From Escherichia coli (GTDB lineage Bacteria > Pseudomonadota > Gammaproteobacteria > Enterobacterales > Enterobacteriaceae), in the NCBI RefSeq assembly GCF_044324875.1, contig NZ_CP172185.1: a stretch of DNA of 64,000 nucleotides. One strand, 5' to 3'. Below are positions 2,781 to 64,000 of the stretch, piece by piece; positions within the stretch are counted from its first letter, which is position 1, and every line of letters begins with the position of its first letter. Under the pieces are notes generated by a model. The model did not search any database, had not been told where the DNA came from, and saw nothing but the letters and a program-made list of their open reading frames with translations. The position numbers were made by a program, and so were the translations under genes.

Positions 2781-2861
2781 TCATTATCCTTATAGAAAAA
2801 GAAAACCACCGACATCCCTGAGGATGCGGTGGCTTTATTGACCTGTACCGCAGTCGTTATA

Positions 2862-3866: not shown

Positions 3867-3868
3867 CG

Positions 3869-14507: not shown

Positions 14508-14583
<76 letters not shown>

Positions 14584-14618
14584 TTGGGTGGTCTGTGCTT
14601 TACAGCACTTTCAAATTT

Positions 14619-14694
<76 letters not shown>

Positions 14695-14851
14695 TTAATC
14701 TTCGTCTTTCGAACCGCTACTGCCTTGGCTGCCTTCACTCACCTTAGTCACTTACTTTTGTAAGCTCCCAAGGATTCGTTCAGTTGCCGCCTTGTCGCAA
14801 TTCGAAATACTGCGATTGGGTGGTCTGTGCTTTGCAGCACTTTTCAAATTT

Positions 14852-14927
<76 letters not shown>

Positions 14928-21680: not shown

Positions 21681-23183
21681 TTATTCCACCACCCACTGCG
21701 GATTTTTTGCCACTCTGCTGCAATAGTTCTGGTAAATCGCCATCGCTAACAGCGAGAAGAAGACAGGGCCGCCAATCATCCACAATGTGCTGTCCCAGTC
21801 TCCGGCTTCAACCACAGGTTGAATGATGGTGAAGACGTTCGCAAATGTCACAACCAGTACGACAACCACCGTCGCAATCATTGCCGACATACGCGTTTTG
21901 AAAATCACAAACGGTCTGTCGAGATCCTGACGTGCTTTAAAGAATGGGAAAGCCAGCGCGAGGAACAAGTAAGGAAGCGTCATAGACACGTTCGCCATCA
22001 GAGTCAGTTTGTTAAAGAACGCCGATGCGGTGCCACCGCCAAACGAAACCAGAAGAATGAAGATAGTAACCAACCCGCACTGCATCCACATGGCGATAGA
22101 AGGCATACCCATCGTATTCAGGCGCGTCATCGGTTCCGGCCACAACGCTTTCGGCGTTCCCTGGATGATGGCTTTCAGCGGTGAATAGCAAAGCGTAAAG
22201 AACGCACCGGTATAAGCGAGGAACATCGAAAGCCCGGTAATACGCGCAAACCATACGCCCAGCGACAATGACGCTTCTGGTGACAAATGCAGTGCGTTAC
22301 CCAGCGTCACCCCGAGGCTCTTCATCAGCACATAGGTAATATTGCCGAGGTTAACGGAACCATTACTTAATACCTGCTGCCAGTTTGTGCTGACGCCCCA
22401 TAAAAATATTGCCAGCGAATAACCGATTGAAATAACAATAGCGGCAAAAACAATACCTTTGGCAAAGTTCTTTTCTGGATTTTCCGTTTTATCGACCAGA
22501 CCACCAACCGCTTCAATTCCGCCATAGGCAAAAATAGCAAATACCACAAACGATAGCATTGCCAGACCGGACTGATAACCTGGATTCGGTGATGCAAGGA
22601 AATTAATATCCTGCGCGAAATGCCCACCATTTAATAACAAAATAGTAATGCTTACTAACAGCAATACTAAATTCAGACACATTACTGCAATACCGCCCAC
22701 CGCAGTAATGCGGGCAATTTTATTAATCCCTTTTGAAGCAACGACGGTGACCAGAATCATCCATGCCACTGCCAGCAGACCAACCACCTGCGTAGGCTCC
22801 AGTCCGGCAATATGCCAGTGCTGGGTCATGTCGCTACCATAGAGGAATGTTGAGAACGGTACCCAAACTTTCGCGGAGGTACTCACCATCCAGATGATAT
22901 AAGAGGAAAACCACATAAACGTACCAATGAAGGCAAAACGTGGTCCGACACTATTATTCATCCAGGAATAGATACCGCCTTCTTCTTTGCGATAAGCAGC
23001 TCCCATTTCAGCCATCATTAAGGCGAATGGAATAAAGAATAACAATGCAGAAAATATATAAAAGGGAATCGCACTATAACCCATTAAGTAATAAGCCGAT
23101 GGGCTATTGGCAAATCCAAATACGGAAGTAAAGATCATCAATATGAGTCCTATCAGACTCATCTTTTTTATCGTGTGAGGCAT
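21681..23183 (-). CDS. yjeM: APC-superfamily inner-membrane transporter YjeM
   Basis: 500-aa polytopic membrane protein from MPHTIKKMSLIGLILMIF...; start at ATG 23183. Confidence 0.88.
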   Translation of the reverse strand: MPHTIKKMSLIGLILMIFTSVFGFANSPSAYYLMGYSAIPFYIFSALLFFIPFALMMAEMGAAYRKEEGGIYSWMNNSVGPRFAFIGTFMWFSSYIIWMVSTSAKVWVPFSTFLYGSDMTQHWHIAGLEPTQVVGLLAVAWMILVTVVASKGINKIARITAVGGIAVMCLNLVLLLVSITILLLNGGHFAQDINFLASPNPGYQSGLAMLSFVVFAIFAYGGIEAVGGLVDKTENPEKNFAKGIVFAAIVISIGYSLAIFLWGVSTNWQQVLSNGSVNLGNITYVLMKSLGVTLGNALHLSPEASLSLGVWFARITGLSMFLAYTGAFFTLCYSPLKAIIQGTPKALWPEPMTRLNTMGMPSIAMWMQCGLVTIFILLVSFGGGTASAFFNKLTLMANVSMTLPYLFLALAFPFFKARQDLDRPFVIFKTRMSAMIATVVVVLVVTFANVFTIIQPVVEAGDWDSTLWMIGGPVFFSLLAMAIYQNYCSRVAKNPQWVVE

Positions 23184-44081: not shown

Positions 44082-44157
44082 GCCCGGATAGCTCAGTCGG
44101 TAGAGCAGGGGATTGAAAATCCCCGTGTCCTTGGTTCGATTCCGAGTCCGGGCACCA
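44082..44157 (+). tRNA. pheU: tRNA-Phe (GAA)
   Basis: Exact 76-nt GCCCGGATAGCTCAGTCGGTAGAGCAGGGGATTGAAAATCCCCGTGTCCTTGGTTCGATTCCGAGTCCGGGCACCA. Confidence 0.97.
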
Positions 44158-46068: not shown

Positions 46069-49000
46069 ATGGATGAAAATGCTTTAGGGTTTGCCTCATA
46101 CTGGCGCAACTCGCTTGCGGACGCTGAGTCAGGAAAGGGCAGTTTTGAACGGAAAGACGCCAAAAATTTCACTCACTGGCATGGGATAGCGGCGGGACGT
46201 CTTGACGAAGCGATTGTCAGTAAATTTTTTAAGGGAGAAAAAGACGATGTCGAAACGGTCGATGTCATCTTGCGCCCAAAAGTTTATTTCCGGTTACTGC
46301 AGCATGGTAAGGACCGTTCTGCAGGTGCGCCTGATATTGTTACCCCGATAGTGACGCCAGCCTTGCTAAGCCGTGAGGGTTTTTTATATCCGACGCCAGC
46401 GACCTCCATTCCCAGAGACCTGCTTGAACCTTTGCCAAAAGGAGCATTTTCGATTGGTGAGATTGGGCAGTATGACAAATACAAGACGACCCATACCACG
46501 TTCTCTATCAACTTTGATGACAGCGTTGATAAGACTGCCGAAACGGATGAAGAACGGGAAGAACGATATGCAGCCTTGCAGCAGGAGTGGCGTCAATATC
46601 TGGATGATTCAGAGAGGCTGCTGAAGAACGTTGCCGGCGACTGGATTAAAAATCCTGAGCAATATGAACTCGCTGAGCACGGTTATATTGTTAAAACGGC
46701 GCAATCTGGCGGTGCCAGTTTCCATATCCTTTCTCTTTATGATCACCTGCTTGTTTGCAATAAGGATGTGCCGCTCTTCAATCGATTCGCCTCGCGAGAG
46801 GTTCATGCTGCAGAGTCTTTGCTGGCCCCTGGAGCAAAATTCAGCGACAGGCTTGGACACTCCGGAGATAAGTTTCCGCTGGCAAAGGCTCAGCGCGATG
46901 CCTTAAGCCATTTTCTGGATGCTAAACATGGCGATATCCTTGCTGTTAATGGCCCTCCTGGAACCGGAAAAACCACGCTGGTGCTTTCTATCATCGCCAC
47001 GCAGTGGGCCAGAGCGGCTCTCGAAAAATCTGAGCCTCCGGTTATTATCGCGACTTCAACGAATAACCAGGCTGTAACGAACATTATTGAGGCATTCGGG
47101 AAAGACTTTTCGCAAGGTTCAGGTGCGATGGCCGGGCGATGGTTGCCAGAGCTGAAAAGCTTCGGCGCTTATTTTCCCTCAGGCAGCCGTAAAGCTGAAG
47201 CAGCCAAAAAATATCAAACTGAAGATTTCTTCAACCAGGTTGAGTCAAAAGAGTATGTAGAAGATGCACTGCTGTTTTATCTGGAAAAGGCTAAGGCAGC
47301 CTTTCCTGAAAAAGAGTGTTCATCCCCTGAAAAGGTCATTGAACTCCTGCATGGTCAGTTGGCAGCAAAATCCGAGCAACTGATAAGACTGAACGCAACA
47401 TGGCAAAAGTTAAGCCAGATTCGGGCTGCGCGTGAGCTTATTGCTAATGATATTGAGCAATATCTCAATAATTTAAATAAATTACTTTCCGGACAAGAAC
47501 AAAAAATCACTCTACTGAAGAGTGCTAAAACGGAATGGAAAAAATATCGCGCCGGTGAATCACTGATCTATTCATTATTTTCCTGGCTTCCGGCGGTTCG
47601 CAGTAAGCGACAGTACCAAATACAGCTGTTTCTCGAAGATAAATTAGGTGCGCTGATTGCAGGAAATCAATGGTCTGATCCTGAAACTATCGAACGTAAT
47701 ATTGATGGGCTGCTCAATTCCGCTGAGCGCGAGCAAACAACATACCGGCAGCAGATTGACTCCGCCCATGAAATCATTCTTAAAGAACAGCAGGCGGTTC
47801 AGGAGTGGCAGAGACTGGCTCTTGATTTAGGGTATGAGGGCGACGAGGAACTGAGCTTCTCACAGGCCGATGAACTGGCTGATACGCAGATTCGCTTCCC
47901 TGCATTTTTACTGACGACTCACTACTGGGAAGGTCGTTGGCTGATGGATATGGCCAGCATTGATGATCTGCAGGAAGAGAAGAAGAAAAAAGGCGCTAAA
48001 GGGGTAACCGCCCGTTGGCAACGTCGAATGAAACTCACTCCATGTGTGGTGATGACATGCTATATGCTGCCCGGCAATATGCAGATAAGTGAGCACAAAG
48101 GACAGCGTAAATTCGAGAAAAGTTATTTGTATGATTTTGCCGATTTACTCATTGTCGATGAAGCCGGGCAGGTGCTTCCTGAAGTGGCTGCTGCCTCGTT
48201 TGCATTAGCTAAGAAGGCATTAGTGATTGGCGATACGGAGCAGATCCCGCCAATATGGAGTATTGCTCCTGCGATTGATATCGGTAACATGCTGGCGGAA
48301 AAAATTCTGTCTGGCAGTACGCAAGAAGAGATTACCGAGAAATATACGGCAATCGCAGACCTTGGTAAAAGTGCCGCATCTGGCAGCGTTATGAAAATAG
48401 CGCAGTTTGCTTCGCGCTATCAATATGATCCCGAACTGGCTCGTGGTATGTACCTATATGAACACCGCCGGTGCTACGACAATATTATTGGATACTGTAA
48501 TACGCTCTGCTATCACGGTAAGTTGTTGCCTAAAAGAGGGCGTGAAGAGAGCAATTTAATGCCCGCAATGGGGTATCTCCATATTGATGGTAAAGGAGAG
48601 CTGGCAAGTAGTGGAAGTCGATATAATTTGCTTGAGGCTGAAACGATAGCGGTCTGGTTGGCAGAGAACCAGCAAAATATTGAAGCGCATTACGGTAAAT
48701 CGCTTCATGAAGTTGTCGGTATTGTGACGCCTTTTAGCGCTCAGGTATCCACTATCAAACAGGTGCTGGGCAAACAAGGTATCAGTACAGGCACGAATGA
48801 AAAGTCGCTCACAGTGGGCACCGTGCACTCTCTTCAGGGAGCGGAAAGAGCGATTGTGATATTCTCGCCAGTCTATTCAAAACATGAAGACGGCGGGTTT
48901 ATTGATAGCGATAACAGCATGCTGAATGTTGCAGTCTCCCGTGCGAAGGACAGTTTTCTGGTCTTCGGCGATATGGACCTGTTTGAGGTCCAGCCAGCCT

Positions 49001-49584
49001 CATCGCCACGGGGATTACTGGCAAAATACCTCTTTGAGTCAGAGAAGAATGCGCTCTCTTTTGATTATAAAGAGCGTAAGGATTTAAAAACCGCCGGGAC
49101 CAAAATCTACACACTTCATGGTGTGGAGCAACATGATAATTTCCTGAATCAGACATTTGAAAATACCAGTAAACACATCACGATAGTTTCTCCATGGCTG
49201 ACCTGGCAAAGGCTGGAGCAAACCGGTTTTCTTGATTCCATGATTGCGGCGTGTTCACGTGGAATTAACGTCACGATAGTCACTGACAGAAGCTACAACA
49301 CTGAACATAATGATTTTGAGAAGCGAAAAGAGAAGCAGCAGAACTTTAAAGCGGCGCTGGAGAAACTGAATGCGCTGGGTATTGCTACAAAGCTGGTAAA
49401 CCGTGTTCATAGCAAAATTGTTATTGGTGATGATGGTTTGCTGTGCGTGGGATCGTTCAACTGGTTTAGTGCGACACGGGAAGCGCGATATGAACGATAC
49501 GATACATCAATGGTTTATTGCGGTGATAACCTGAAGGGTGAGATTGAGGCTATTTATAATAGTCTTGAGAGGCGGCAGGTTTAG
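46069..49584 (+). CDS. Upf1-like SF1 helicase fused to a C-terminal PLD-family (single HKD) nuclease domain; candidate anti-phage defence protein with Mokosh type II-like architecture
   Basis: 1171-aa ORF. Walker [10 protein letters not shown] (aa 295-303, nt 46951-46977); Walker [10 protein letters not shown] (nt 48145-48171); helicase motifs [19 protein letters not shown] and [16 protein letters not shown] (nt 48814-48972); C-terminal HSKIVIGDD...GSFNW = H-x-K-x4-D...GSxN (nt 49408-49464). Located beside the island integrase. Confidence 0.8.
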
Positions 49585-49600
49585 AGCAGGAATGGTGAGT

Positions 49601-49637
49601 AGCCATCTTACCGATCGTTTTCGAGCGTAAGATGGCT
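49601..49637. other. 11-bp perfect inverted repeat between the convergent helicase-PLD and sulfatase-family genes
   Basis: AGCCATCTTAC ... GTAAGATGGCT with 15-nt loop; no adjacent T-run, so terminator function is uncertain. Confidence 0.35.
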
Positions 49638-49692
49638 GAATGGAATGGCTATTATTGCACAGTCCTTAATTATAACATTCATACCGACATGA

Positions 49693-51192
49693 TTATCTTC
49701 TGCCCGGAAGAATCAGAGGCTGTGGTTTCAGACTGTCTGCCGGTACATTCCTGTCTCCGTTAAAAACAATAACGGGTTCATTATCTTCGTCTGTCAGCGG
49801 ATTGAATGGCGGTATATTTTCAGTACGAATGCCGGTCAGCCACTGAAAAATACCTGCGAAATGACGGGCACTGATTTTTCTGCTGACGGACTGATGAGAC
49901 GTGATGTCACTGGCGGTAATAATCAGGGGAACGCTGTAGCCTCCTTGTATATGGCCATCATGATGAACAGGATTAGCACTGTCGCTGACCGACAGACCAT
50001 GGTCAGAAAAGTAAAGCATGGCAAAATGACGGGAGTGCCGGCGAAGGATACCATCAAGCTGACCGAGAAAGTTATCCAGTTTACTGATGCTGGCGAGGTA
50101 ACAGGCAATCTTTCGGGGATACTGCTCCAGGTAATGATTCGGCCAGGAGTTAAGTCGGTCACACGGATTCGGATGAGAGCCAATCATGTGCAGGAATATC
50201 ACCTTCGGAGAGGATTTATCCGCCAGTGCACGTTCTGTTTCCTGTAACAACAACATGTCATCCGTTTTACGGGAAGCAAAGCTGCCTTTCTTGAGGAAAA
50301 CGGTATGCTCCGCATCAGAAGCAATAACAGAGATGCGTGTATCATGCTCCCCCAGTTTTCCCTGATTGGATATCCACCATGTGCTGTATCCTGCTTTTGC
50401 TGCCAGCGCCACCACGTTGTTGCCGGAGTCAGGGTTCTGCTCATAGTCATAAATCAGTGTCCGGCTCAGGGAAGGTACGGTACTGGCTGCTGCCGATGTA
50501 TAGCCGTCAATAAATAAACCGGGAGCCGTATTCAGCCATGGTGTGGTTGGCACGGGATAGCCATATACCGACATATAATCCCTGCGCACACTCTCACCAG
50601 TAACGATAACAATCGTGTCATACAACGGTGTTCCCGGCAGGATTTTCCAGTTGTCAGCCCCGTGCTGACTCAGTTGTTTATAACGCTGCATTTCACGCAA
50701 TGTGTCAGTTGTTCCCACAACAATTCCTTTAACCATCCGCAACGGCCAGCTGTTTACAGAGCATAATACGAACAGCAGCAGTGCCAGCCAGTTACGGTGA
50801 CCGCGGTGGTGTGTCCGCCAGAAAATCACCATGAATACCAGAATCGCGGCACTGACCAGAAAATGATAAACAGGAATCATCCCGGTAAACTCTGCAGCCT
50901 CATCAGCCGTGGTCTGCAGCAACGCGACAATAAAACTGTTGTTGATTTTACCGTACGTCATACCCGCAGGCGCATACAGTGCACAACAGAACAGAAATAA
51001 CAGCGTTGTAATGGATGTGAGGGTATTTCTGTGTGCAAGGAGCAGAAGGAGAAACAGAAGCAGCACATTTCCTGTGGCATTCTTCTCAGTGTATCCGCAT
51101 GCAATTGTGGTTATCACAGAAATAACAAAAAAGAATAAAAACAATAAAATCCGGGGTGTGTCGCCCGGACAAAACAGTTTTCTGATATTCAT
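49693..51192 (-). CDS. Sulfatase-family inner-membrane protein (phosphoethanolamine-transferase-like)
   Basis: 499-aa ORF; N-terminal ~130 aa strongly hydrophobic (multiple TM helices), C-terminal domain with VTGESVRRDY and HMIGSHPNP motifs resembling EptA/OpgE/LtaS-type transferases. Confidence 0.7.
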   Translation of the reverse strand: MNIRKLFCPGDTPRILLFLFFFVISVITTIACGYTEKNATGNVLLLFLLLLLAHRNTLTSITTLLFLFCCALYAPAGMTYGKINNSFIVALLQTTADEAAEFTGMIPVYHFLVSAAILVFMVIFWRTHHRGHRNWLALLLFVLCSVNSWPLRMVKGIVVGTTDTLREMQRYKQLSQHGADNWKILPGTPLYDTIVIVTGESVRRDYMSVYGYPVPTTPWLNTAPGLFIDGYTSAAASTVPSLSRTLIYDYEQNPDSGNNVVALAAKAGYSTWWISNQGKLGEHDTRISVIASDAEHTVFLKKGSFASRKTDDMLLLQETERALADKSSPKVIFLHMIGSHPNPCDRLNSWPNHYLEQYPRKIACYLASISKLDNFLGQLDGILRRHSRHFAMLYFSDHGLSVSDSANPVHHDGHIQGGYSVPLIITASDITSHQSVSRKISARHFAGIFQWLTGIRTENIPPFNPLTDEDNEPVIVFNGDRNVPADSLKPQPLILPGRR

Positions 51193-51373
51193 CGGAGTAT
51201 ATCGACAACATTATTATGAAGAGAACAGGATAATAAAAATCAGAAATTATCTGTAAAACAGATAACAGACAACCCTGCAGCAATAGACTGCAGGGTGTTT
51301 CTGTTTAATTGCAGAAGATATACAATTATATTAATTACAGAATATTCGTGATTATCTCTCGGGAACAGTGTTG

Positions 51374-52114
51374 TCAGAAGTTATAAGTCACACCAAGCAT
51401 GATGTCATGACTTTTAACATCAACTTCTGACTTATATTTATCGCCCCACTCGTCCTTGTAACTCACACTGCTGTCACCTGCATCAAGATAGCGATAGCTG
51501 AGGTCCAGAGCGATATCCGGGGTTACGTCATAGCGGACACCCGCGCCAAGGTTCCATGCGAAGTTGTCAGCAGAGCCTGAACGTGACAACGATTCGCGAC
51601 CACTGCTTCCGTACTCATAATCCCAGGTACTGATACCGGTTGTTTTCTGGTGAATTCTGGCGTAGCCAATCCCTGCAGATATCCAAGGTGTGAATGCGCT
51701 GTCATTCCGGAAGTCATAGTACGCATTCAGCATTAGTGTGTTGACTGACACCTCATTCTTCAGGTCATCACGCCAGTAACCACCTGACCAACTGTCTTTA
51801 TCTACGTTATACTTCGAATCAGCTTTTCCACGAGCGTAAAACTCCAGTTCTGTACGAACCGGAATACTGAACTGCGGATAAAAATCATAACCAGCCGCGA
51901 TACCACCACTGAATACCGTATCATGGTCATCGCCGCCTTTATACTTTGACGTTTCTTCCTCATCTCCTGACAGGAAACGCTGGTCTGAAAGTGACACCAC
52001 AGAGGTACCGGCTTTACCGGTCAGATAAAAACCGCTTTTACCTTCCTCAGCACCTGCATTTGCTGCAAATACACAGGCTGCGGCCACCACTGAAACAGCA
52101 AAAACCTTTTTCAT
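51374..52114 (-). CDS. Outer-membrane beta-barrel protein (Opa/Ail/OmpA-like)
   Basis: 246-aa ORF with signal peptide MKKVFAVSVVAAACVFAANAGA, alternating amphipathic strands rich in Y/G/D, and C-terminal ...GVTYNF (terminal Phe typical of OM beta-barrels). Confidence 0.7.
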   Translation of the reverse strand: MKKVFAVSVVAAACVFAANAGAEEGKSGFYLTGKAGTSVVSLSDQRFLSGDEEETSKYKGGDDHDTVFSGGIAAGYDFYPQFSIPVRTELEFYARGKADSKYNVDKDSWSGGYWRDDLKNEVSVNTLMLNAYYDFRNDSAFTPWISAGIGYARIHQKTTGISTWDYEYGSSGRESLSRSGSADNFAWNLGAGVRYDVTPDIALDLSYRYLDAGDSSVSYKDEWGDKYKSEVDVKSHDIMLGVTYNF

Positions 52115-52190
52115 TTCAATTATCTCCGTTATTGCTCCGTTGCTGCAAGCAGTACTCAGTGCATTTTAAAACCCGCCATGCTATAGCCTC

Positions 52191-52235
52191 AATCGAATAA
52201 AATCGATCGAATCGATCGATGATATCGATCGTCAT
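52191..52235. repeat. ATCGA(T)-rich low-complexity tract with overlapping ATCGAT palindromes
   Basis: AATCGAATAAAATCGATCGAATCGATCGATGATATCGATCG about 80 bp upstream of the OMP start codon. Confidence 0.6.
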
Positions 52236-52601
52236 TAACCAGAAATTTTTATCGTATTCAGTCAGCACAGACACAACAAATGCATGCCATGCAGGCAGCC
52301 ATGCCCCGTCGCGACAGATGGTAGCAGTGGGCTGGCGAAGAGCAGAATTAATAAAATTTGTTTATTCTGTCAGGAGATAAGGTGTCACCTGTTCATGAAC
52401 ACAATTAAGGAAGAGACATACATGAGCTGACTGGCAGTCCAGAGTGCATGCGGTTACAAGCCGGAAAGGTGAACCGGTATAACCAGTGAGCAGAGTTTGT
52501 GAAGGGGGGATATAAAAAAGCCCACTGCATGGCTGCGGGTAAAGAGTCAGTTATTTCCGGCGTTTTTCAAGGTAGTTGTCGCCTGATGTAATAAAATTAC
52601 G

Positions 52602-52960
52602 TTATGCCGCTTCTTTTTCTGGATTCAGATAAACTGCCTGAATGAGTTCCCAGTCACGCAACTGTTTGCTCCAGCGCTCAGGATGACGCTTGCGAGCTTC
52701 GCGATAAACTTTTTTTCTGGCTTCCAGTATTTGTGCATCAATTCCGCGATGGCGTTCATCCGGAGTAACATACTTAATACCGCTGTGCTTGTGTTCCAGG
52801 TTGTACCATTACGTGAACTTGCTTAACCAACTTCTGGCTTCATCTATGGTTCGAAAACCATTCTCCGGCCACCATGAACAATACTTAATCGTCCGGAAGA
52901 GCGATTCGGAATAAAGAAGTGTTACTGGCAGTTCTTTCATCGCATCAGTGAAAACCAGCA
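52602..52960 (-). pseudogene. Transposase C-terminal remnant (DDE integrase-core type, IS3-like), interrupted by a stop codon
   Basis: Minus-strand translation ...SLFRTIKY...WPENGFRTIDEARSWLSKFT*WYNLEHKHSGIKYVTPDERHRGIDAQILEARKKVYREARKRHPERWS...; no N-terminal part present. Confidence 0.5.
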
Positions 52961-52969
52961 GGGCACTGC

Positions 52970-53391
52970 TCACCAGAGCAACACAGGAAAGTGAACCCGA
53001 ACAAAAGTTCCTGTACCATTTTCTCCCAGCAGACGTGAGGCTTGTTCCAGTGACGCTGGTATACGTCCCAGCCGGACATCAAGTGCGCCGATGGCTATTG
53101 CCTGAAATCGCATCGTACAGCAAATCACCAACAGGACACCGACAGACATTAAAGGTAACCCCCTGTAATCCAGTAGTTCCGCCAGCCAGCGGTCATTTAG
53201 GGAGTCAGAAAACCAATCGCCAGAATCGTGCCCGGAAAGGCATAACCCAGCGACGCCCCTCTCATCACACCGCGCCTGAACAGTGGCATAGCGTTGAGGA
53301 ATTCCGGGCATTCCAGACTACGAGCAGACTGACAAAAATTACGACAAAGCGTTGAAGGAAGCCAGCGCGCGGACTGACAGGACTTTACCAT
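52970..53391 (-). pseudogene. ABC-transporter permease remnant (frameshifted fragments)
   Basis: Two overlapping minus-strand ORFs with permease-type motifs (...AMPLFRRGVMRGASLGYAFPGTILAIGFL...; ...LEQASRLLGENGTGTFVRVHFPVLLW); no intact gene. Confidence 0.4.
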
Positions 53392-53440
53392 AAAAACACA
53401 GGCTAACCGCGCCTGCGTTTTTAATGACGGATAAACAGAA

Positions 53441-55420
53441 TCAGGTGCCGATTATGCCGCCGTCGGCTTTTACGATAACGACAGTTGAGGAGCGCGGACG
53501 ACCAGCCTTATCGCCGTCAGGCCAGCTTGATACTGCCGTCGGATGCTGCGGATCGCTAAGCCCTTCGCTTGGCTCGCCAGGGTGCTGGATGTTAATAAAC
53601 AGCGTCCGGTTATCCGGAGTGAACGCGATGCCGGTGATTTCGCAGCCGCGCGGGCCGGTCAGGAAGCGGCGGAACTCATTGGTACCGGGGATCGTCGCCA
53701 CCATCTGGTTGTTGCCCATGCCTTTGTAATCTTTACTATTGATGGTTGATGACGACACGTCGGTCTGGATCCATAGCACGCCGCGGTGATCGAAGCTCAG
53801 GCCATCGGCGCTGCCGAATTCCGCCCCCTTCATGCTGCCTTTGGTTTCCGGTTTGTCCGTATCGGTGCGACCGCCCATCACAAGAATATCCCAGGCAAAC
53901 TGCAGCGCGGTCGGGTCACCGTTATGCTCCAACCAGTGAATGATGTGGCCGTAAACGTTTTTGGCGCGCGGGTTGGCCGCATCCACTGGCGCTTTTCCTT
54001 CCTTACCGCGATCGCTGTTGTTGGTGAGCGTGCAGTAAACGCTGCCGGCGTGATATGGATCGACCGCAATCCACTCCGGGCGGTCCATTTTAGTGGCCCC
54101 CACGGCGTCTGCCGCCAGACGGGTTTTAATCAACAGGTCGCCCTGGTTTTCAAACCCTTTACTGGCGTCGAGCCCATTTTGTCCGAACACCAGCGGTAGC
54201 CACTCGCCTTTGCCGTCGTCGTTAAATTTCGCCACGTACAGAGTGCCTTTTTCCAGCAGGTGCATGTTGGCTTTGCGATCCTGCGGGTTGAATTTTCCTT
54301 CCGAGACAAATTTATATATGTATTCGAATTTCTGGTCATCGCCCATATAGACCACAACGCGGTTATCCGGGGCAATTGTCACCGCTGCGCCTTCGTGTTT
54401 GATGCGACCAAGCGCGGTGTGCTTGCGCGGCACTGAATGCGGATCGTATGGATCGATTTCCACCACCCAGCCGAAGCGGTTCGGCTCGTTCGGCGTGGCG
54501 TCGACGCTGAACCTTTTATCCACTTCGTTCCAGCGGTAAGAGTCGTCGCTCCCGCTGATACCGTAACGTTTTTCCAGCGGGTTCATCTCTGCTTTTTTTA
54601 CGAAAATATCGGACCAGTTCTCTTCACACGTCAGATAGGTGCCCCACGGCGTAAATCCGTTGGCACAGTTCTGCATGGTGCCGAGAATGATTTCGCCTTT
54701 CGGATCGTCAACTGTTTGCATCAGTGGGTTATGCAGCGCCGGACCGGTGATTTTCATCGGCGTGTTAACGGTGATGCGGCGTGCGAAAGATGACGGGCGC
54801 ACCACTTCCCAGCCCAGGGGCACTTTTTTTACTTCAATGACCGACACGCCCATCGCGTTCTGGCCTTTAAGAGCTTTATCGGCGCTCCAGTTGGCATCGC
54901 CATCTTTAAACAGTAGACCGTTATCGATGTATTCATGGTTTATGGCAAGCAGGCCGTGATCGGAGCTGTTCCCGCCCTGCGGCAGGCTAAACCACGCCAT
55001 GCCGTCGTGGTGCATCCCGGCCTGCGCCGCCTGTTCTTCCGTGGTGTTGCTACCGTCGGTTTTAAAAACCGGCAGATTTCCGGCAATCCCGGTGGCGTCG
55101 CCCCATTTGTAGAAGGGCTTCGCGATGTATCCTTCCGGCACGATAACGGTATCTTCCGTGGAAACCGGCAGGCTGGTGAAACCGAGCGTCGTCGCTTTGC
55201 CGAGGTTACCGCTTGCTTTGGAGACCACTTTCGCCAGCGCGTTTTCCTGTTTCAGCAGAAATGGGAACGCTGCCGCGGCACCGGCGACCGTGCCGGCCTG
55301 TAACAGACGGCGGCGTGACAAATAAACTTCCGCCACCTGCGAAAACGCGCGGTTATCGCTCGGGTTACTGATTTCTTCACTATGCTCACGTTTGAATAAA
55401 GTTTTTAACGGTCTGCCCAT
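53441..55420 (-). CDS. PhoX-family phosphatase (DUF839) with Tat-type signal peptide
   Basis: 659-aa ORF; N-terminus ...SRRRLLQAGTVAGAAAAFPFL (twin-arginine-like); body matches the beta-propeller PhoX/DUF839 pattern. Confidence 0.75.
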   Translation of the reverse strand: MGRPLKTLFKREHSEEISNPSDNRAFSQVAEVYLSRRRLLQAGTVAGAAAAFPFLLKQENALAKVVSKASGNLGKATTLGFTSLPVSTEDTVIVPEGYIAKPFYKWGDATGIAGNLPVFKTDGSNTTEEQAAQAGMHHDGMAWFSLPQGGNSSDHGLLAINHEYIDNGLLFKDGDANWSADKALKGQNAMGVSVIEVKKVPLGWEVVRPSSFARRITVNTPMKITGPALHNPLMQTVDDPKGEIILGTMQNCANGFTPWGTYLTCEENWSDIFVKKAEMNPLEKRYGISGSDDSYRWNEVDKRFSVDATPNEPNRFGWVVEIDPYDPHSVPRKHTALGRIKHEGAAVTIAPDNRVVVYMGDDQKFEYIYKFVSEGKFNPQDRKANMHLLEKGTLYVAKFNDDGKGEWLPLVFGQNGLDASKGFENQGDLLIKTRLAADAVGATKMDRPEWIAVDPYHAGSVYCTLTNNSDRGKEGKAPVDAANPRAKNVYGHIIHWLEHNGDPTALQFAWDILVMGGRTDTDKPETKGSMKGAEFGSADGLSFDHRGVLWIQTDVSSSTINSKDYKGMGNNQMVATIPGTNEFRRFLTGPRGCEITGIAFTPDNRTLFINIQHPGEPSEGLSDPQHPTAVSSWPDGDKAGRPRSSTVVIVKADGGIIGT

Positions 55421-55842
55421 TGCGGTTTCCTTTCAAAAAATCGATTTCAAGGGGAATCATTTTTATGCACGTGAGTCTACGGAAAGATTGTTACGGAAAT
55501 ATAACAATTGTCATAAAAAACCGGCGATAAAATCATCTATGGTCGGGACGCGGTTTCAGGTATGATGTGAGGCTAGAATTCTGAACGCTCTCTTTTGTTG
55601 AGCATATATGGACGTCCCGGGTGAGGCAAGTACTGGTTCGATGCGGTTTGCGACCATATATCCGGCGTCGTTAGTAGGTTCAATGACCTGCGCCATGATG
55701 TTATCCGGGCCCTGTTTCCTAATCACTACACCGGTATTTGATTACCCAGGTCAACTTCAGACTGTTACAGGGGCGGTAGCCGTTATCTCATCAGTGAATG
55801 TAAACTCAGTTAAAAATATTTTCTATAACTTACTGTTTTTCT

Positions 55843-56026
55843 TTAATTCATCACAACGGCCTTCTGCATATTAAAATCAATACTATCGCTCAAAACACGC
55901 CAGATGATTCTTGTCAGCTTATTCGCCAGCGCACCAGTGGTTTTCAGGAACCCTCGACGGGCTTCCATCCTTTGCAGACAAATACTCAGACTGTCAGTGA
56001 GCTTTTTCACACAGCGCATTACAGAC
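55843..56026 (-). pseudogene. Transposase-like C-terminal fragment (family uncertain), cut by the IS911-like end
   Basis: Short minus-strand ORF ...TGALANKLTRIIWRVLSDSIDFNMQ... abutting the IS911-like terminal repeat at 56027. Confidence 0.3.
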
Positions 56027-56440
56027 TGAAATGGCACACTGAATTTGGTCACCTGAACAGAGGTGATATGCTCACCTCAGAACAAGACTGGTGCCCTAAT
56101 GAAAAAAAGAAATTTTAGCGCAGAGTTTAAACGCTAATCCGCCCAACTGGTTGTTGACCAGAACTATACGGTGGCAGATGCCGCCAAAGCTATGGATATC
56201 GGCCTTTCCACAATGACAAGATGGGTCAAACAACTGCGTGATGAGCGTCAGGGCAAAACACTAAAAGCCTCTCCGATGACACCAGAACAAATCGAAATAC
56301 GTGAGCTGAGGAAAAAGCTACAACGCATTGAAATGGAGAATGAAATATTAAAAAGGCTACTGCACTCTTGATGTCAGCCTCCCTGAACAGTTCTCTATAA
56401 TAGGGAAACTCAGGACACGTTATCCTTTGGTCACTCTCTG
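56027..56440 (+). mobile_element. IS911-like (IS3 family) left-end fragment with inactivated orfA
   Basis: Terminal repeat TGAAATGGCACACTGAATTTGGTCACCTGAACAG at 56027; orfA from ATG 56099 reads MKKRNFSAEFKR* (in-frame TAA), then ...[29 protein letters not shown]...IEMENEILK; right boundary approximate. Confidence 0.7.
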
Positions 56441-57310
56441 TGTAGTGGATCGGTAATTCAGGACACCTCATTTTCACTGTTAATGTTAAAAAGTGAAAAT
56501 GAGGTGATGCATGATCAAAACTCGTCGGACTAAACGTACCTTTTCCCCGGAGTTCAAGCTTGAAGCTATCGAACAGGTGGTTAAATACCAGCGTGATGTC
56601 AGAGAAGTCGCGCTGGCACTCGAGCTCAACCCTGACCATTTGCGTAAATAGATACGGTTGTATAAGCAGGAACTTCAGGGTATTGAGCCCGCTGGTAATG
56701 CTATTACTCCTGAACAACGCTAAATTAAGCAGCTTAAAGCGCAGATAAAGCGCCCTGAGATGGAAAAAGAAATACTAAAGCAGGCTGCCGTGCTGATGAG
56801 CGAAATCCCCGGGGAAACTGTCGCGCTAATCACACAGCTGAAAGCAAAGTGGCCAGTGCGGGTTCTTTGTCATTTATTCGGTATTCACCGTAGCATTTAT
56901 TACGCGCAGGTGAAGCGTCCTGTTAATGTGCAAAGAATTGAATTACGAAGTCGGGTGAGGGCTGTCCATGCTCTCAGTCGTGGCGCAGTCGGTAGCCGGG
57001 CAATCAGTCAGATGTTGCGCCATAGTGGCGTTGATGCAGGTCGGTGGCTGGCACGACGACTGATGCGGGAATGCGGGCTGACAAGTCGACAGCCAGTTAA
57101 ACATCACTACCGGGTAAACGAAGACAAAAGTCCGCCATTGCCAAATTTACTGAACCGGCAATTTCACCCCGCCGCACCAAACCGCGTCTGGTGCGGCAAC
57201 ATCAGTTTTATTCGCCTGCAGGACAAATGGTGTTATCTCGCACTCGTTGTTGATTTATATTCACGGCGGATTATCGGTTCAGCCCTCTCATTAACCGCTG
57301 ATGCTGAGTT
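56441..57310 (+). mobile_element. Second IS3-family element fragment (orfA and 5' part of orfB), truncated by the IS66 insertion
   Basis: orfA from ATG 56511 (MIKTRRTKRTFSPEFKLEAIEQVVKYQRDVREVALALELNPDHLRK*), orfB-like ORF 56760-57314 (...RVWCGNISFIRLQDKWCYLALVVDLYSRRIIG...) ending at the IS66 end; left boundary approximate. Confidence 0.6.
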
Positions 57311-57347
57311 GTAAGCGTACAGCGAGGGCCGTATTGACGGGGATGTG

Positions 57348-58886
57348 TTATTCAGCTGGCAGTGCTATGCGCCACGGAAGCAGTTCGCTGACCCGGTTGA
57401 CCGGCCAGTCTGCTATGACGCCAAGCACATGGCGAAGGTAGCTTTCTGGATCCACGTCATTCAGTTTGCACGTCCCTATCAGGCTGTACAGTAGCGCTCC
57501 CCGCTCACCACCATGGCCAGAGCCGAAGAACAGGAAGTTTTTACGACCCAGACTTACCGCCCGCAGGGCATTTTCAGCGATGTTGTTGTCGATTTCCACC
57601 CAGCCATCGTTCGCATAGTACGTCAGTGCCGGCCACTGGTTAAGTGCGTACGCGAACGCCTTCGCCAACTCTGAGTGTCGCGACAGGGTCTTCATCTTTT
57701 CACGCAACCAGCTTTCCAGGGATTTCAACAGCGGTTTCGTTTTTCGCTGACGTTCAGCAAGCCGCTGCTCTGCCGGCATTCCCCTTATATCCGCCTCTAT
57801 GGCGTACAACTGACCGATCTGCTCCAGGGCTTCTTCCGTCAGTGCTGACGGGATGCGGACGTGCACATCGTGGATCTTTCGGCGGGCATGAGCCCAGCAG
57901 GCAGCTTCCGTTATCCCACCATTGCGATACAGCTCGTTGAACCCGGCGTACGCATCCGCTTGCAGCACACCGCTGAAGCAAGCAAGATGAGTCTGCGGAT
58001 GGATGCCTTTTCTGTCCGGGCTGTAAGCGAACCACACTGCAGGTGCCAACGCTGACCCGGCATTGCGGTCATCACGAACATACGCCCACAACCGCCCGGT
58101 CTTCGTCTTCTTATTACCCGGCATCAGTACCTGGACCGGGGTATCATCGGCATGGAGTTTGCCGTCAGTCATGACATAGCCATGAAGCGCCTCTTCCAGC
58201 GGAGACAGCAGCCGGCAGCATGCATCCACCCAGCCCGACAGCAGTGAACGGCTCAGCTCCACACCTTGCCGGCCGTATATTTCTGACTGGCGATACAGCG
58301 GGGTGTGCTCTGCATACTTCGAGGTCAGCACGCGGGCCAGCAGCCCCGGTCCGGCGATACCCCGCTCGATGGGCCGCGAAGGTGCAGGTGCCTGCACGAT
58401 GGCATCGCACTGAGTACAGGCATGTTTTTCCCGTACCGTCCGGATAACCCGGAAGGCGCTACGCATCAACTCCAGCTGTTCGGCGGTATCCTCGCCCAGA
58501 TAGCTCAGTGAACCGCCGCAGTTCGGGCAGCACGGCGCCGCAGGCAACAGTCGCTTTTCGTCACGGGGTAGTGATTCAGGGAACGGCTTACGGATGCGGG
58601 TCTGACGCAACGGACGCTGTACTGCCGGGTCATACACCCTACCAGTCAGCGTATCGCTCTCTTTCTGAAGCCGGTTCAGATCGGCTTCCATTTGTGCGAT
58701 ACGGCGGGAGACTTTTTCGGAACGACTGCCGAAGTTCATCCGGCGGAGTTTATCCAGCTGCGCCTGCAGATGGTCTATTTCGCGCTCCCGGTTGCTCAGC
58801 TTTTCCTGCAGGGCGTGGATCAGCGCTTCCTGTTCGGCCAGGCGCTGTTTCAGCAGGAAGATGTCGTCAGAAGAGATGTCGTTCAT
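57348..58886 (-). CDS. IS66-family transposase TnpC
   Basis: 512-aa ORF with N-terminal leucine-zipper/coiled-coil ([24 protein letters not shown]), Cys-rich zinc-finger region (CPNCGG...CTQCD) and DDE core. Confidence 0.88.
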
Positions 58887-58935
58887 AAGCCCGTATTTTA
58901 CCGGGCTTATTCTGTGACAACCAGGATAAAGAGAT

Positions 58936-59283
58936 TTACAGCATGGTCAGGGAGGTCAGCAGCCGCTTAGGCTGTCGCCAGTCGATACCTTCCAGCAGCA
59001 TCGCCAGCTGCGCCTGTGTAAGGAACACTTTGCCATCACGGGCTGACGGCCAGGCGAAGCGCCCACGCTCCAGCCGTTTGGTCAGGAGGCACAGTCCGTC
59101 ACCGGTGGACCACAGCAGTTTAACCTGACTGCCGCTGCGGCCCCGGAAAATGAAAACATGGCCGGACATGGGATCGTCTTTCAGCGCCGTCTGTACTTTC
59201 GCAGCCAGGCCGTTGAAGCCATTTCTCATATCGGTGATACCGGCAACCAGCCAAATTTTGGTCCCGGAAGGTAAAGGGATCAT
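58936..59283 (-). CDS. IS66 accessory protein TnpB (orf2)
   Basis: 115-aa [34 protein letters not shown]... Confidence 0.85.
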
Positions 59284-59681
59284 CGCTTCAGTTCCTGTAT
59301 CAGCAGAGTCAGGAGCTTTTCGCTGACATTGCCATTGAAGCGGAGCGTCCCGTGCCGGAACGTTACCTCACAGCTGATACTGAGGGTTTCCGGGTCCTCT
59401 GCGAGCGATTCTGGCTGTTCGGCAGCTGCATCGAGAGTCACAGGAAGTAGCTGGGGGCTCTCTGAAGAAGGTAATAGCAGCTTTCCCTCGCGCCATTGTT
59501 GTCGCCATTTGAACAACAGATTGGCGTTAATGCCATTTTCAAGAGCAAGTTTTGAGATGGATATCCCGGGTTCACAGGAGGCAGCAACGAGCTGCTGTTT
59601 AAATTCGGGAGGATAATTAGGGCAGCCTTTTCGCCTGCCGGGAGTCACATTTTTCTGCATATCTGACACTTTGGTTCCCAC
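59280..59681 (-). CDS. IS66 accessory protein TnpA (orf1)
   Basis: 133-aa ORF; 4-bp overlap with tnpB. Confidence 0.8.
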   Translation of the reverse strand: MGTKVSDMQKNVTPGRRKGCPNYPPEFKQQLVAASCEPGISISKLALENGINANLLFKWRQQWREGKLLLPSSESPQLLPVTLDAAAEQPESLAEDPETLSISCEVTFRHGTLRFNGNVSEKLLTLLIQELKR

Positions 59682-59752
59682 TACTTATTTGGTGGACACC
59701 ACTTTGTCTAATTCGTCAGATTCTGACCAGACGGTTCAGGCTGTACGCTTAC

Positions 59753-61833
59753 GCCTGACCGGTGTCTCTGGTGACATATTCCGGAGCTCCGGAGAGAGTA
59801 AAGGTAACGCGATCATCGGCAGAAGCATCTCCATACTGCAGATGCCCGTCGTTGGGGATCATGGCCAGTTTGCCGTAATAGCGATACACATTGTATTCAT
59901 CCTGTGTATAGCCAAAGAAGGACTGATTATTCAGTTGTGAACCCGACAGGCTGACAAACTCGCTGGCAAGAAGATGACTTCCCGTATTATCCAGTTTGTT
60001 CGCGTCAATCAGCAGATTATTACCGGCCGAAATTCTGGCATCCCCCCCTGTTGCACCAACATCGACGCGTGTTGTGCCAGTCAGAAATTTCCGGGTGGCT
60101 CCCTTTTCAGTCGGAACGGCCCATGCCTCAAAACCACCACCGGCAGTACCGCTCCAGGACTTCACATAATATCCCCATCCATTTTCACCTAAATCGCCCA
60201 CTCTGACTGAAACAGAATTTACACCATCAGGTACTGCGACATTCTCAACCGGAATGTATGATTTTGTCTCATTTATACCCTCCCGCTGATTCAGTAAATG
60301 TCCGGTTCTGATGGTGATATCACCGCGGGTGGTTTCGATATTCCCGGAGGTATTAATCACTTCAGCATTCGCGGCACCACTGACATCTTTCTGCATCACC
60401 AGGCTGTAACCCGCCAGCATATCGCCGTGATGGTTCCGGATGGTGCTGGCAAACAGCGAGAGGTTATTGCCCGCATACAACAGTGCGGTGTTAATGACTG
60501 CCCCGGCGACCGTTAACACCAGACTACCCGTCGTGCCGGTAAAACCGTCGAGAGTGATATCTCCCCTGCTGGTCAGGCTGACGTCCCCGCCTGCCTGCAG
60601 GCTGCCGCTGGCATTCATCGCAATCCCGCTGCCGCTCAGTGCCGTGGTGCCGTTGCCGGCGGTCAACTGGCCATTGTTGGTCAGCCTGCCTGCAGCATTC
60701 AGCGTGATACCGTTGCCCTGCAATGTGGCGCCATTGGTAATATCACCCTGGCTGCTGACGGAGAGTTGTTTATTCGCGGCGATAACGCCCTGTGCGGTCA
60801 AACCACGTGTGAGCTTCAGCGTCAGGTTACCGAGTGCAACCAGCTGGCCCGCGCCGCTGAGCGAGACCATTTCAGCAAGCATATCACCGCCGCTGAACAC
60901 CTTCCCGCCGGCGTTGTTCAGGCTGTTCCCTTTTATTGTCAGGCCCTGATTACCCAGCAGCGTGCCGCTGTTGGTGATGGTCTGCGTGTTGACGTTCAGT
61001 TGTGCAGCCTGGAACAGGCCACGGTTGGTCAGACTGTTACCTGTGAGCGTTGCCTGATTCGCCGCCATCACAGTGCCATTACCGGCAAGCTTCGCCACGT
61101 TCAGCAGCAGGTCAGTGGCCTGTAGCCAGCCACTGCCACTGTAGTCCGGCGTGGTGAACGTCAGCTCACCGCCGGAAAGAATCTTGCCACTGTTGTGGGC
61201 CTGCGTTGCCGCGCTGAGCGTGGTTTTACCGTTGCCCTGAATGGTGCCGTCATTAGTCAGCACAGGTGCAGAAAGCGCTGATACGTTCTGACTGAGAAGC
61301 ACACCGCTGGTCTGGTTGGTCAGGGCATTCAGCAATGTAAGAGTCAGCCCGCTGTCGCCCTGCACACGACCTGAGTTGGTCAGCGAACTGGCGGTGATTC
61401 GGTTATCCGCCCCCTGAAGCTGCCCACTATTGCTGATGTCTCTGGCGTTGACGTTTAATGTACCGCCTGTCAGCATTTTACCGTGCTGTTGCAGATTACC
61501 ACTGAGTGTCACATTCAGGCTGTTAACACCACTGATTTCGCCACCGTTGCTGAGCGAATCACCATTCACTTCCAGCGTCTTCGCGCTGATTAATCCCTTG
61601 TTACCCAGCACTTTCCCGGTAAGGCGGGCATCGCCCAGGGCGGTAATTTTGCTGCCGGTGGCAGCAATAACATCGCCACTCAGGGTCAGAGCCAACTCCA
61701 GCGCACTCTGAACAGCACCGCTGCTGGTCAGGCTGCTGGCATCCAGAGTAATGTTCTGCCCCTGAATCCGGCCGCTGTTGGTCACATCTCCTGCGCTCAG
61801 CGTCAGCGAGTTCTGGCTCGATCCGCGCACCAC
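59753..61833 (-). pseudogene. Internal fragment of a filamentous-haemagglutinin / CdiA-like two-partner-secretion exoprotein
   Basis: 694-aa minus-strand ORF made of degenerate repeats (...LTNSGRVQG..., ...LNNAGGKVFSGGDM..., ...GNSLTNRGLFQAAQLNVN...); no TPS secretion domain; reading frame terminates inside the IS66 terminal repeat. Confidence 0.7.
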
Positions 61834-61872
61834 TTATCCCGAACTGCGTCAGCAGTTGATCGGAGGTACACC

Positions 61873-62424
61873 ATGAAACGCATTCTGACCCGTGGCCTGG
61901 CGCTGCTGATGCTGATGCTCGCCGGCTGCAGCATCGAGGTCACCGAGTACCGGCAGCAGCAGCCCGCCCTCGACATCTTCCACTATTTTCAGGGTCGAAC
62001 CGAGGCGTGGGGGATGGTGCAGGATCGCCGCGGTAAACAGCTGCGCCGCTTCCATGTAGCGATCGATGGCGACGTCGTCGGCGACACCCTGACGCTCCAT
62101 GAGCGCTTTGTCTATGACGATGGCGAGAAACAGCAGCGGGTGTGGCGCATTCGCCGCACCGGCGATAACCATTATCAGGGCACCGCCGGGGATATCGAAG
62201 GCGTGGCCAGCGGCCAGGCGGCAGGCAATGCCTTTCACTGGCGCTACAGCATGAACGTCGAGGCCAGCGGCAGCCGGTGGCTGCTGCACTTTGACGACTG
62301 GATGTTCCTGCAGGACGGCAGCCATTTGTTTAACAAAACCGAGATGAAGAAATTCGGCATTACGGTGGCCACCGTGACCCTTTTCTTTACCCGAACCACA
62401 GCAGAAGAGAGGACAGCGCCATGA
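61873..62424 (+). CDS. Putative lipoprotein
   Basis: 183-aa ORF with signal peptide and lipobox MKRILTRGLALLMLMLAGCS; stop overlaps the next gene's start (ATGA); high-GC codon usage. Confidence 0.65.
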   Translation: MKRILTRGLALLMLMLAGCSIEVTEYRQQQPALDIFHYFQGRTEAWGMVQDRRGKQLRRFHVAIDGDVVGDTLTLHERFVYDDGEKQQRVWRIRRTGDNHYQGTAGDIEGVASGQAAGNAFHWRYSMNVEASGSRWLLHFDDWMFLQDGSHLFNKTEMKKFGITVATVTLFFTRTTAEERTAP

Positions 62425-63380
62425 ACACGCAACCTGTCATTGGGATCAGCGGATGTTTAACCGGCTCAGCCGTGCGATTCGACGGCGGGCATAAGCGTAT
62501 GGGCTTTGTGATGGATGAGCTCGCGCAGTGGGTGGCGTTTAAGCCCGTCTGCCCGGAGATGGCGATCGGCCTGCCCGTTCCCCGCCCGGCGCTCCGGCTG
62601 GTGCAGACCCCGGTCGGGGAGATCCGCATGCGCTTCAGCCACGCCCCGCACGAGGATGTGACGGAGAAGATGGCCGATTTCGCCAACGCCCATCTGGCAA
62701 CCCTGGGCGAGCTGTCGGGCTTTATCGTCTGCGCCAAATCGCCGATCTGCGGGATGGAGCGCGTGCGGCTGTATGATGAAAAAGGCAATCGCGGGCGTAA
62801 GGAAGGCGTGGGGCTGTTTACCGGCGCCCTGATGGCGCGCTACCCGTGGCTTCCGGTGGAAGAGGATGGCCGGCTGCACGATCCGCTGCTGCGGGAGAAT
62901 TTTGTCGAGCGCGTCTTCGCCCTGCATGAACTCAACGCCCTGCGCGCCCGCGGCCTGACCCGCCACGGCCTGCTGGCCTTTCACAGCCGCTACAAGCTGC
63001 AGCTGCTGGCTCACCACCAGGCGGGCTACCGCGAGATCGGCCCCTTCGTCGCCTCGCTGCATGAATGGGAGGATCTGGAGGCTTTCTTCGAGGTCTATCG
63101 CGAAAAGCTGATGGCGATCCTCAAGCGGCCCGCCTCTCGGAAAAACCACACCAACGTGCTGATGCATATTCAGGGTTATTTCCGCGACCAGCTGAACAGC
63201 CGCCAGCGCGGCGAGCTGCGGGAGGTGATCCTCAACTATCGCGCCGGGCTGCTGCCGATCCTCGCGCCGCTGACGCTGCTTAAGCACTATCTGGCCGAGT
63301 ATCCGGATCGCTACCTGCAGGCGCAGAACTATTTTGACCCCTACCCGCAGGATCTTGCCCTGCGCCTGACGGTGAACTGA
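62421..63380 (+). CDS. YbgA-like protein (DUF523 plus DUF1722-type)
   Basis: 319-aa ORF MNTQPVIGISGCLTGSAVRFDGGHKRMGFVMDELAQWVAFKPVCPEMAIGLP...; high GC and Leu/Arg/Ala-rich composition. Confidence 0.6.
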   Translation: MNTQPVIGISGCLTGSAVRFDGGHKRMGFVMDELAQWVAFKPVCPEMAIGLPVPRPALRLVQTPVGEIRMRFSHAPHEDVTEKMADFANAHLATLGELSGFIVCAKSPICGMERVRLYDEKGNRGRKEGVGLFTGALMARYPWLPVEEDGRLHDPLLRENFVERVFALHELNALRARGLTRHGLLAFHSRYKLQLLAHHQAGYREIGPFVASLHEWEDLEAFFEVYREKLMAILKRPASRKNHTNVLMHIQGYFRDQLNSRQRGELREVILNYRAGLLPILAPLTLLKHYLAEYPDRYLQAQNYFDPYPQDLALRLTVN

Positions 63381-63395
63381 GGGAACCTGGGCCAG

Positions 63396-63616
63396 CTGCC
63401 CGGCGGCGCTGCGCTTGCGCGGGCCTGGGAGGGGATCCCGCAGGCCTCCTCAGGAACGTAGGCCGGATAAGGCATTTATGCCGCCATCCGGCACAACCAC
63501 AGGTATGGAGCTTGAAGTGTCCTGCCCGGCGGCGCTGCGCCTGCCGGGCCTGGGGGGTATCCCGCAGGCCTCCTCAGAAACGTAGGCCGGATAAGGCATG
63601 TATGCCGCCATCCGGC
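63396..63616. repeat. Two tandem ~97-bp REP/BIME-type palindromic repeat units
   Basis: Units 63396-63492 and 63522-63616, about 90% identical, each containing TAGGCCGGATAAGGCAT(T/G)TATGCCGCCATCCGGCA. Confidence 0.8.
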
Positions 63617-63692
63617 ATAAATGGAGCGCACCAGTCGTAGCCCGGCTAAGCGTAGCGCCAGCCGGGAACGCTCCTTCGACAACGCTATCGCA

Positions 63693-64000
63693 TCAGAACC
63701 ACGCCTCAAACATCCCGCCGACGTTCAGCGAATCCAGCTGCTGGTCTTTGGTGCCGTTGACCTTAGCGGTATGCTCGTTGTCCACCTGACCGCCGGTCAC
63801 GTAGAAGCGCAGCATCGGACGGAACTCCGGCCCCATGCCGATGGCGATGTTCTGCGACAGCGTCAGCTTCCAGCCGTGGTTATCCCCGCCCTGGTCGTAG
63901 TCCACGCGCTGGTAGCCCGCTTCCAGCCAGGTGGAGTGCACGTCGTTCCAGAAGTACATCGGCCGCACGATGGCACCGTAGTTTTTGCGGTTGTCGGTAT
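63693..64000 (-). CDS. LamB-family sugar porin, C-terminal part (gene runs off the window end)
   Basis: Minus-strand ORF ending ...DSLNVGGMFEAWF*, resembling maltoporin-type C-termini; frame open to the window edge. Confidence 0.55.
   Translation of the reverse strand, partial: TDNRKNYGAIVRPMYFWNDVHSTWLEAGYQRVDYDQGGDNHGWKLTLSQNIAIGMGPEFRPMLRFYVTGGQVDNEHTAKVNGTKDQQLDSLNVGGMFEAWF

Follow-up and report, generated by a model that had tools for sequence, protein, structure and literature searches.

The window analysed here, 64,000 nucleotides of one strand of Escherichia coli contig NZ_CP172185.1 (RefSeq assembly GCF_044324875.1), carries a complete ISEc8 insertion sequence (IS) of the IS66 family at 57311 to 59752, between a remnant of an IS3-family element on the left and an internal fragment of the cdiA gene on the right. 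The element is 2442 bp long, has its genes on the minus strand, and is 100% identical to a copy in E. coli B771 (0 differences over 2442 bp) that is labeled "IS66-like element ISEc8 family" in RefSeq; it differs at 10 to 16 positions from the duplication-flanked ISEc8 copies in strains C311 and EC98. We conclude that an old rearrangement joined the arms of two E. coli islands at this ISEc8 copy, which marks the seam and is not a simple insertion.

The ISEc8 element and its two flanks

The ends of ISEc8 are defined by a pair of 22-nt terminal inverted repeats that are 82% complementary, one at the tnpC-proximal end (57311 to 57332) and its partner at the tnpA-proximal end (59731 to 59752); they match perfectly across the outer 13 nt (GTAAGCGTACAGC), and both open with GTAAGCG. 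The tnpC gene (57348 to 58886, minus strand) is intact and codes for a 512-amino-acid DDE transposase, with a PF03050 (DDE_Tnp_IS66) match at E=9e-107, LZ, zf-IS66, and IS66_C domains (PF13007, PF13005, and PF13817), and an NF033517 score of 457 bits against a cut-off of 180. Upstream of tnpC lie the accessory genes tnpB (58936 to 59283, minus strand; 115 amino acids; PF05717 and NF033819) and tnpA (59280 to 59681, minus strand; PF01527 [HTH_Tnp_1] and NF047595), which overlap by 4 bp; the tnpA open reading frame (ORF) has 133 codons from a GTG start and is annotated at 126 amino acids in identical copies in RefSeq. The window copy thus shares with ISEc8 its length, the tnpA-tnpB-tnpC order, the 4-bp tnpA/tnpB overlap, and the GTAAGCG repeats, and it looks competent for transposition. 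No other IS66 copies or fragments were found in the 64-kb window.

The left flank is an IS3-family remnant (56147 to 57310, plus strand) composed of orfA fragments and an orfB fragment. The orfB ORF (56760 to 57314) codes for HTH_21 and the first half of rve, and it corresponds to positions 73 to 259 of the 369 in NF033516, which bears out the identification of this flank as IS3-family orfB in an earlier note on this DNA. The rve core is incomplete (positions 2 to 48 of 102, with an NF033516 score of 151 bits against a cut-off of 160) because ISEc8 truncates the gene; an uninterrupted orfB in a copy 95% identical is present in genome L007.

The right flank had been described as an adhesin fragment. 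It is indeed a fragment of a protein with FHA-type beta-helical repeats (PF05594 [Fil_haemagg], E=1.6e-11; TIGR01731), although, more specifically than a generic adhesin, it is a 2,082-bp piece from the interior of cdiA (59753 to 61834, minus strand) with 97.8 to 98.3% DNA identity to annotated cdiA genes. It spans approximately nucleotides 2614 to 4694 of the 9,711-nt cdiA of strain N1, and the 694-amino-acid ORF within it has no match to PF05860, the TPS secretion domain, which was lost with approximately 2.6 kb of the 5′ end. Approximately 5.0 kb is lost from the 3′ end, including the PT-VENN motif and the Endonuclease_NS_2 toxin, and cdiI is also missing; the PT-VENN motif, the C-terminal toxin, and cdiI are absent from the window and are present with uninterrupted cdiA in L022, N1, and L038. 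Compared with a complete cdiBAI locus that has an Endonuclease_NS_2 C-terminal toxin and a YezG-like CdiI, the window is 98% identical in the FHA-repeat region, but it lacks cdiB, the TPS domain, the PT-VENN/toxin domain, and cdiI. Judging by these losses, the fragment is a non-functional, dead remnant. The TAA stop codons of both flanking ORFs, IS3 orfB and cdiA, come from the GTAA at the IS termini (57312 to 57314 and 59749 to 59751, respectively).

ISEc8 lacks a target-site duplication

Read directly from the sequence, the 8 bp adjoining ISEc8 are GCTGAGTT on the left (57303 to 57310) and GCCTGACC on the right (59753 to 59760), exactly as first noted. The earlier note had conceded that its reading would fall if a duplicated target of another length were present at both ends. 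We looked at the true ends of the window ISEc8 for direct repeats, whatever their length, and found none; the base abutting the left end is T and that abutting the right end is G, and no such repeat is therefore possible there.

To place this in context, we sampled six other ISEc8 copies at unrelated E. coli loci, five of them full-length (2442 bp) and one of 2289 bp. Each of the five full-length copies is flanked by a perfect 8-bp duplication (TATTTTTT, AGCTGACC, GGATCAAT, GAAGATGA, and GCTTCGTC, respectively), and the internally deleted 2289-bp copy has none. Because the five duplications lie exactly at the same termini, the boundaries of the window ISEc8 are placed correctly, and the absence of a duplication there is a real departure from normal ISEc8 behavior; the 8-bp rule itself is based on this sampling and on general knowledge. 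The duplication is the sole IS66/ISEc8 feature that the window copy lacks, and it marks an insertion event, so membership in the family stands: the element is a bona fide ISEc8, and the missing duplication reflects the history of one copy and is not a trait of the family. One of the genuine duplications, AGCTGACC, resembles the right flank GCCTGACC and has GCTGA in common with the left flank; in this very small sample, the likeness may reflect a weak target preference.

The two flanks belong to separate loci

Comparison with genomes carrying uninterrupted targets, as proposed in the earlier note, yielded an empty site for each flank. L030 contains a pheU island with the same PhoX gene and IS3 remnant and no ISEc8, and orfB is continuous across GCTGAGTT (...GATGCTGAGTT/GGTGTGTAGG...[113 bp]...CTCT/GGCGTTATGGGG); the next gene codes for a SPATE autotransporter protease. 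On the right, cdiA runs uninterrupted through the junction site (...CTCTCAGA/GCCTGACC...) in L005 and L022. L022 has the same 5′-truncated cdiA beside a DUF3833 gene, in a right arm 98.7% identical to that of the window, and its cdiA is continuous (...GGCTCTCAGA/GCCTGACCGGTG...) into the toxin domain, a YezG-like cdiI, an integrase gene, and tRNA-Leu(CAA) (leuX). The cdiA 3′ end (~5.0 kb with the toxin domain) and cdiI thus occupy in L022 the place of ISEc8 in the window, in support of the proposal that the event removed the 3′ end of the adhesin gene and material that lay between. With both empty sites in hand, the window flanks trace to loci that lie apart in these relatives, and ISEc8 lacks a target duplication because its two flanks derive from different loci.

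The two junctions also occur apart from each other. Among 5426 complete RefSeq E. coli genomes, which formed our main collection, the left junction (IS3 remnant to ISEc8) is present in 37 with other right flanks, and the right junction (ISEc8 to cdiA fragment) in five (ES1, ST38, GF43, A65EC, and I2) with other left flanks; no genome is in both sets, and the exact combination of GCTGAGTT, ISEc8, and GCCTGACC was found in none of the 5426. It is present, around a 2442-bp ISEc8, in at least three other GenBank assemblies, L017 (GCA_974498385.1), L021 (GCA_044068535.1), and L023 (GCA_900450445.1), which we recovered, together with L024, by a DUF3833 protein look-up in a larger collection. The L021 genome shares the left arm of the window as well. 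Because L017, L021, and L023 share both junctions, we take the window arrangement to be real and inherited, and neither an assembly error nor a recent event.

The left junction is paired with at least three right flanks: GGCGTTAT (11 genomes; B771-type), TGACGAAC (BEN2908-type, in a leuX island), and GCCTGACC in the window. In the B771-type, ISEc8 is followed by the remainder of IS3 orfB, from which precisely the 113 bp present in L030 are missing, and then by the SPATE autotransporter protease gene. The loss of the 113 bp is flush with the tnpA-proximal end of ISEc8 (L001, 13353/13354; L030, near 8110), and there is therefore no target duplication even where IS3 sits on both sides. In the ES1-type, the right junction is present and the left junction is displaced by 37 bp into IS3 (GCGGATTA at the IS end), a loss flush with the opposite, tnpC-proximal end (L003 [ES1], 21838 to 21875; window, 57274 to 57310). 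This 37-bp-deletion derivative is found in at least six assemblies. The ES1-type IS is an allele that differs from the window IS at seven sites, with the flanks unchanged, and L024 combines the 37-bp deletion with a window-like allele. A simple order of events would run from the window-type to the 37-bp deletion (L024), then by conversion of the IS to the second allele (ES1-type), and then to I2. We also considered the window as a product of recombination between the B771-type and the ES1-type, the crossover falling within the final 357 bp of the IS, and withdrew this reading as not required, because L024 and the L017, L021, and L023 assemblies equally allow the window-type to be ancestral to the ES1-type.

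Two proposed ISEc8-anchored routes to the junction

Non-matching flanks are a textbook mark of IS-mediated recombination or deletion, and the occurrence of the two junctions in separate genomes, together with the L030 and L022 empty sites, supports the earlier preference for an IS66-mediated event over a simple insertion. That one or the other of the two ISEc8-anchored routes considered below accounts for the junction is, in our assessment, highly probable. ISEc8 has long been resident in the IS3 orfB remnant that terminates a conserved left arm, and the form closest to the ancestor is the B771-type, with IS3 orfB on both sides of ISEc8 and the SPATE gene after it. In the lineage of the window, the tnpA-proximal end instead adjoins the 5′-truncated cdiA, at approximately its position 4694, and this cdiA is part of the right arm of a different island.

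One route, to which we give an even chance, uses two copies. A second ISEc8 would have inserted into cdiA at GCCTGACC, locally or independently, and would then have recombined homologously with the IS3-resident copy, fusing the two arms. The outcome is the same under either route: on one side, the original right flank (what remained of IS3 orfB, with the SPATE arm) gave way to the cdiA-fragment arm from an L022-like island, and on the other, the cdiA 3′ end, cdiI, and the integrase side of that island were lost. Most strains have more than one ISEc8, the median being two places per genome and the maximum 22. Strain I2 gives direct evidence of recombination inside IS66-family bodies at the junction under study: its element (L002, 7759 to 10193; L048, from 3060) is a clean chimera of two elements that are ~68% identical to each other. 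Bases 1 to 1038 are those of element X, which strain 201609 has beside the same left flank, and bases 1032 to 2435 are those of the ES1 ISEc8 allele, placing the crossover within seven shared bases (1032 to 1038). The seven-site difference of the ES1-type allele, set between unchanged flanks, points the same way. There is also a precedent at the same copy, in that the BEN2908-type right junction occurs as a separate ISEc8 remnant in 124 genomes, and strain 135 has both parental junction types.

The two-copy route predicts that a second ISEc8 in cdiA would have left a partner junction of CTCAGAGCCTGACC with GTAAGCGTACAGCG; the duplication first made in IS3 would read GCTGTACGCTTAC/GCTGAGTTGGTGTG. 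Several results weigh against this route. The search for reciprocal halves beside other IS66 copies, which had been suggested as a check, came back empty: a composite of the cdiA 3′ side, GCCTGACC, and an ISEc8 end is present in none of the 5426 E. coli genomes or of 72,556 plasmids, the exact 28-mer of the partner junction has no match in JGI metagenomes, and a composite of an ISEc8 end, GCTGAGTT, and continuing IS3 orfB is likewise in none of the 5426 genomes. No cdiA::ISEc8 parent with GCCTGACC on both sides, and no reciprocal junction, was found in the collections searched. In addition, the window-type IS is not chimeric and matches the resident copy of B771 without a difference up to and including 59395, the last site that is informative, and the end-flush deletions of 113 bp (B771-type) and 37 bp (ES1-type) are poorly explained by copy-to-copy recombination. 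A right-junction 30-mer also had no match in JGI metagenomes, and a cdiI-protein look-up for tandem islands returned only a standard cdiBAI and type I restriction-modification context.

The same absences and the non-chimeric IS would be expected if there had never been a second copy and the IS3-resident ISEc8 had attacked GCCTGACC in cdiA in one transposase-mediated step, either within one molecule (by intramolecular transposition or adjacent deletion) or between two (by a cointegrate-type fusion), joining the tnpA-proximal end straight to cdiA and discarding the intervening DNA. Two further deletions flush with the ends of the same copy, the 113-bp loss and, at the opposite end, the 37-bp loss, fit such an event and point to transposase activity, and GCCTGACC is similar to the bona fide ISEc8 target AGCTGACC. 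Set against these are the failure to find a genome in which the resident copy is followed by cdiA within one island, the B771-type and BEN2908-type arms that lack cdiA, the recombination within the IS body demonstrated in I2, and the fact that adjacent deletion is not, as far as we know, a documented activity of the IS66 family. We regard this one-step origin as possible, if somewhat doubtful. To our knowledge, the chemistry of IS66-family transposition is not established, and in the literature on IS66 and ISEc8 mechanism we found nothing directly usable. Like other IS copies with hybrid flanks that arise by IS recombination or adjacent deletion, the window copy combines one intact IS with flanks that do not match, each of which recurs elsewhere beside a different partner, and both targets have empty sites; it differs in that the second parental copy and the reciprocal product were not recovered, and either recombination or transposase action may have produced it.

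Explanations without an ISEc8-anchored rearrangement fare far worse. A mis-join over the 2.4-kb repeat could have connected a B771-type pheU island to an ES1-type island in the assembly, as the lack of the exact combination among the complete genomes might suggest; with three independent assemblies (L017, L021, and L023) having both junctions around a 2442-bp ISEc8, one of them (L021) with the same left arm, such an artefact is very improbable and is effectively refuted. A simple insertion whose duplication decayed or was not 8 bp long is scarcely conceivable: in its favor are only the two matching bases (GC) that open each octamer, whereas the flanks come from unrelated genes that are each continuous elsewhere (L030 and L022), the differing bases at the two ends permit no repeat, and the termini are validated by the five copies with perfect 8-bp duplications. 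We reject it on the empty sites in L030 and L022.

The islands on either side

The left arm is composed of genes for a phosphoethanolamine transferase, an outer membrane protein, and PhoX, followed by the IS3 remnant. In the window it is part of an island that is anchored at a tRNA-Phe gene (44082 to 44157, plus strand; pheU context) and in which the left arm extends up to the IS3 remnant and ISEc8, and positions 46400 to 59753 are colinear with the pheU island of B771 at 99.93% identity. The left arm is found at pheU in the window, B771, and L030, at selC in ES1, at leuX in BEN2908, and at other sites. Three tandem tRNA-Gly(GCC) genes lie at 14508 to 14927, consistent with the glyVXY core-chromosome region upstream of pheU. 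The B771 island (L004; chromosome 3.83 to 3.88 Mb) begins at pheU, on the dicD, dsbD, and cutA side, and ends at setC, yicL, and nlpA, the flank of selC, an arrangement that suggests a large pheU-selC inversion in B771 through island sequences.

The right arm begins with the cdiA fragment and continues with DUF3833 and YbgA-family genes (61873 to 63380, plus strand), a porin gene, xylA, and further genes. The 5′ truncation of cdiA (61820 to 61873) adjoins a truncated hypothetical gene and the DUF3833 gene, with no IS at the boundary, and the last ~15 bp before the boundary are already divergent from intact cdiA. Because the same boundary is found in L022, it is older than the ISEc8 join; the 5′ end of cdiA was removed by a separate, IS-free event. 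The GC content at 62000 to 64000 is 63%, compared with ~45 to 55% elsewhere in the island, and an arm with DUF3833, YbgA, porin, xylA, and GH43 genes is seldom found in E. coli, being present in 5 of the 5426 complete genomes; the 63% GC arm is probably from another genus.

Implications for island evolution and IS66-family transposition

The rearrangement explains why a cdiA remnant lies beside an IS3 remnant, and its value is mainly in annotation and in the bookkeeping of island evolution; the phenomenon is already known, and no new kind of element or mechanism is involved. Within E. coli, ISEc8 emerges as a fixed breakpoint for the exchange of arms among the tRNA-linked islands at pheU, selC, and leuX. 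We raise, as an unlikely extension, that the three end-flush losses (113 bp, 37 bp, and the kilobase-scale cdiA join) were all made by transposase, through intramolecular, one-ended (replicative-type) transposition of an IS66 element. If this were true, the natural series would be evidence of IS66-family transposition chemistry, and the end-flush deletions offer a mildly useful lead on how the elements of this family move.

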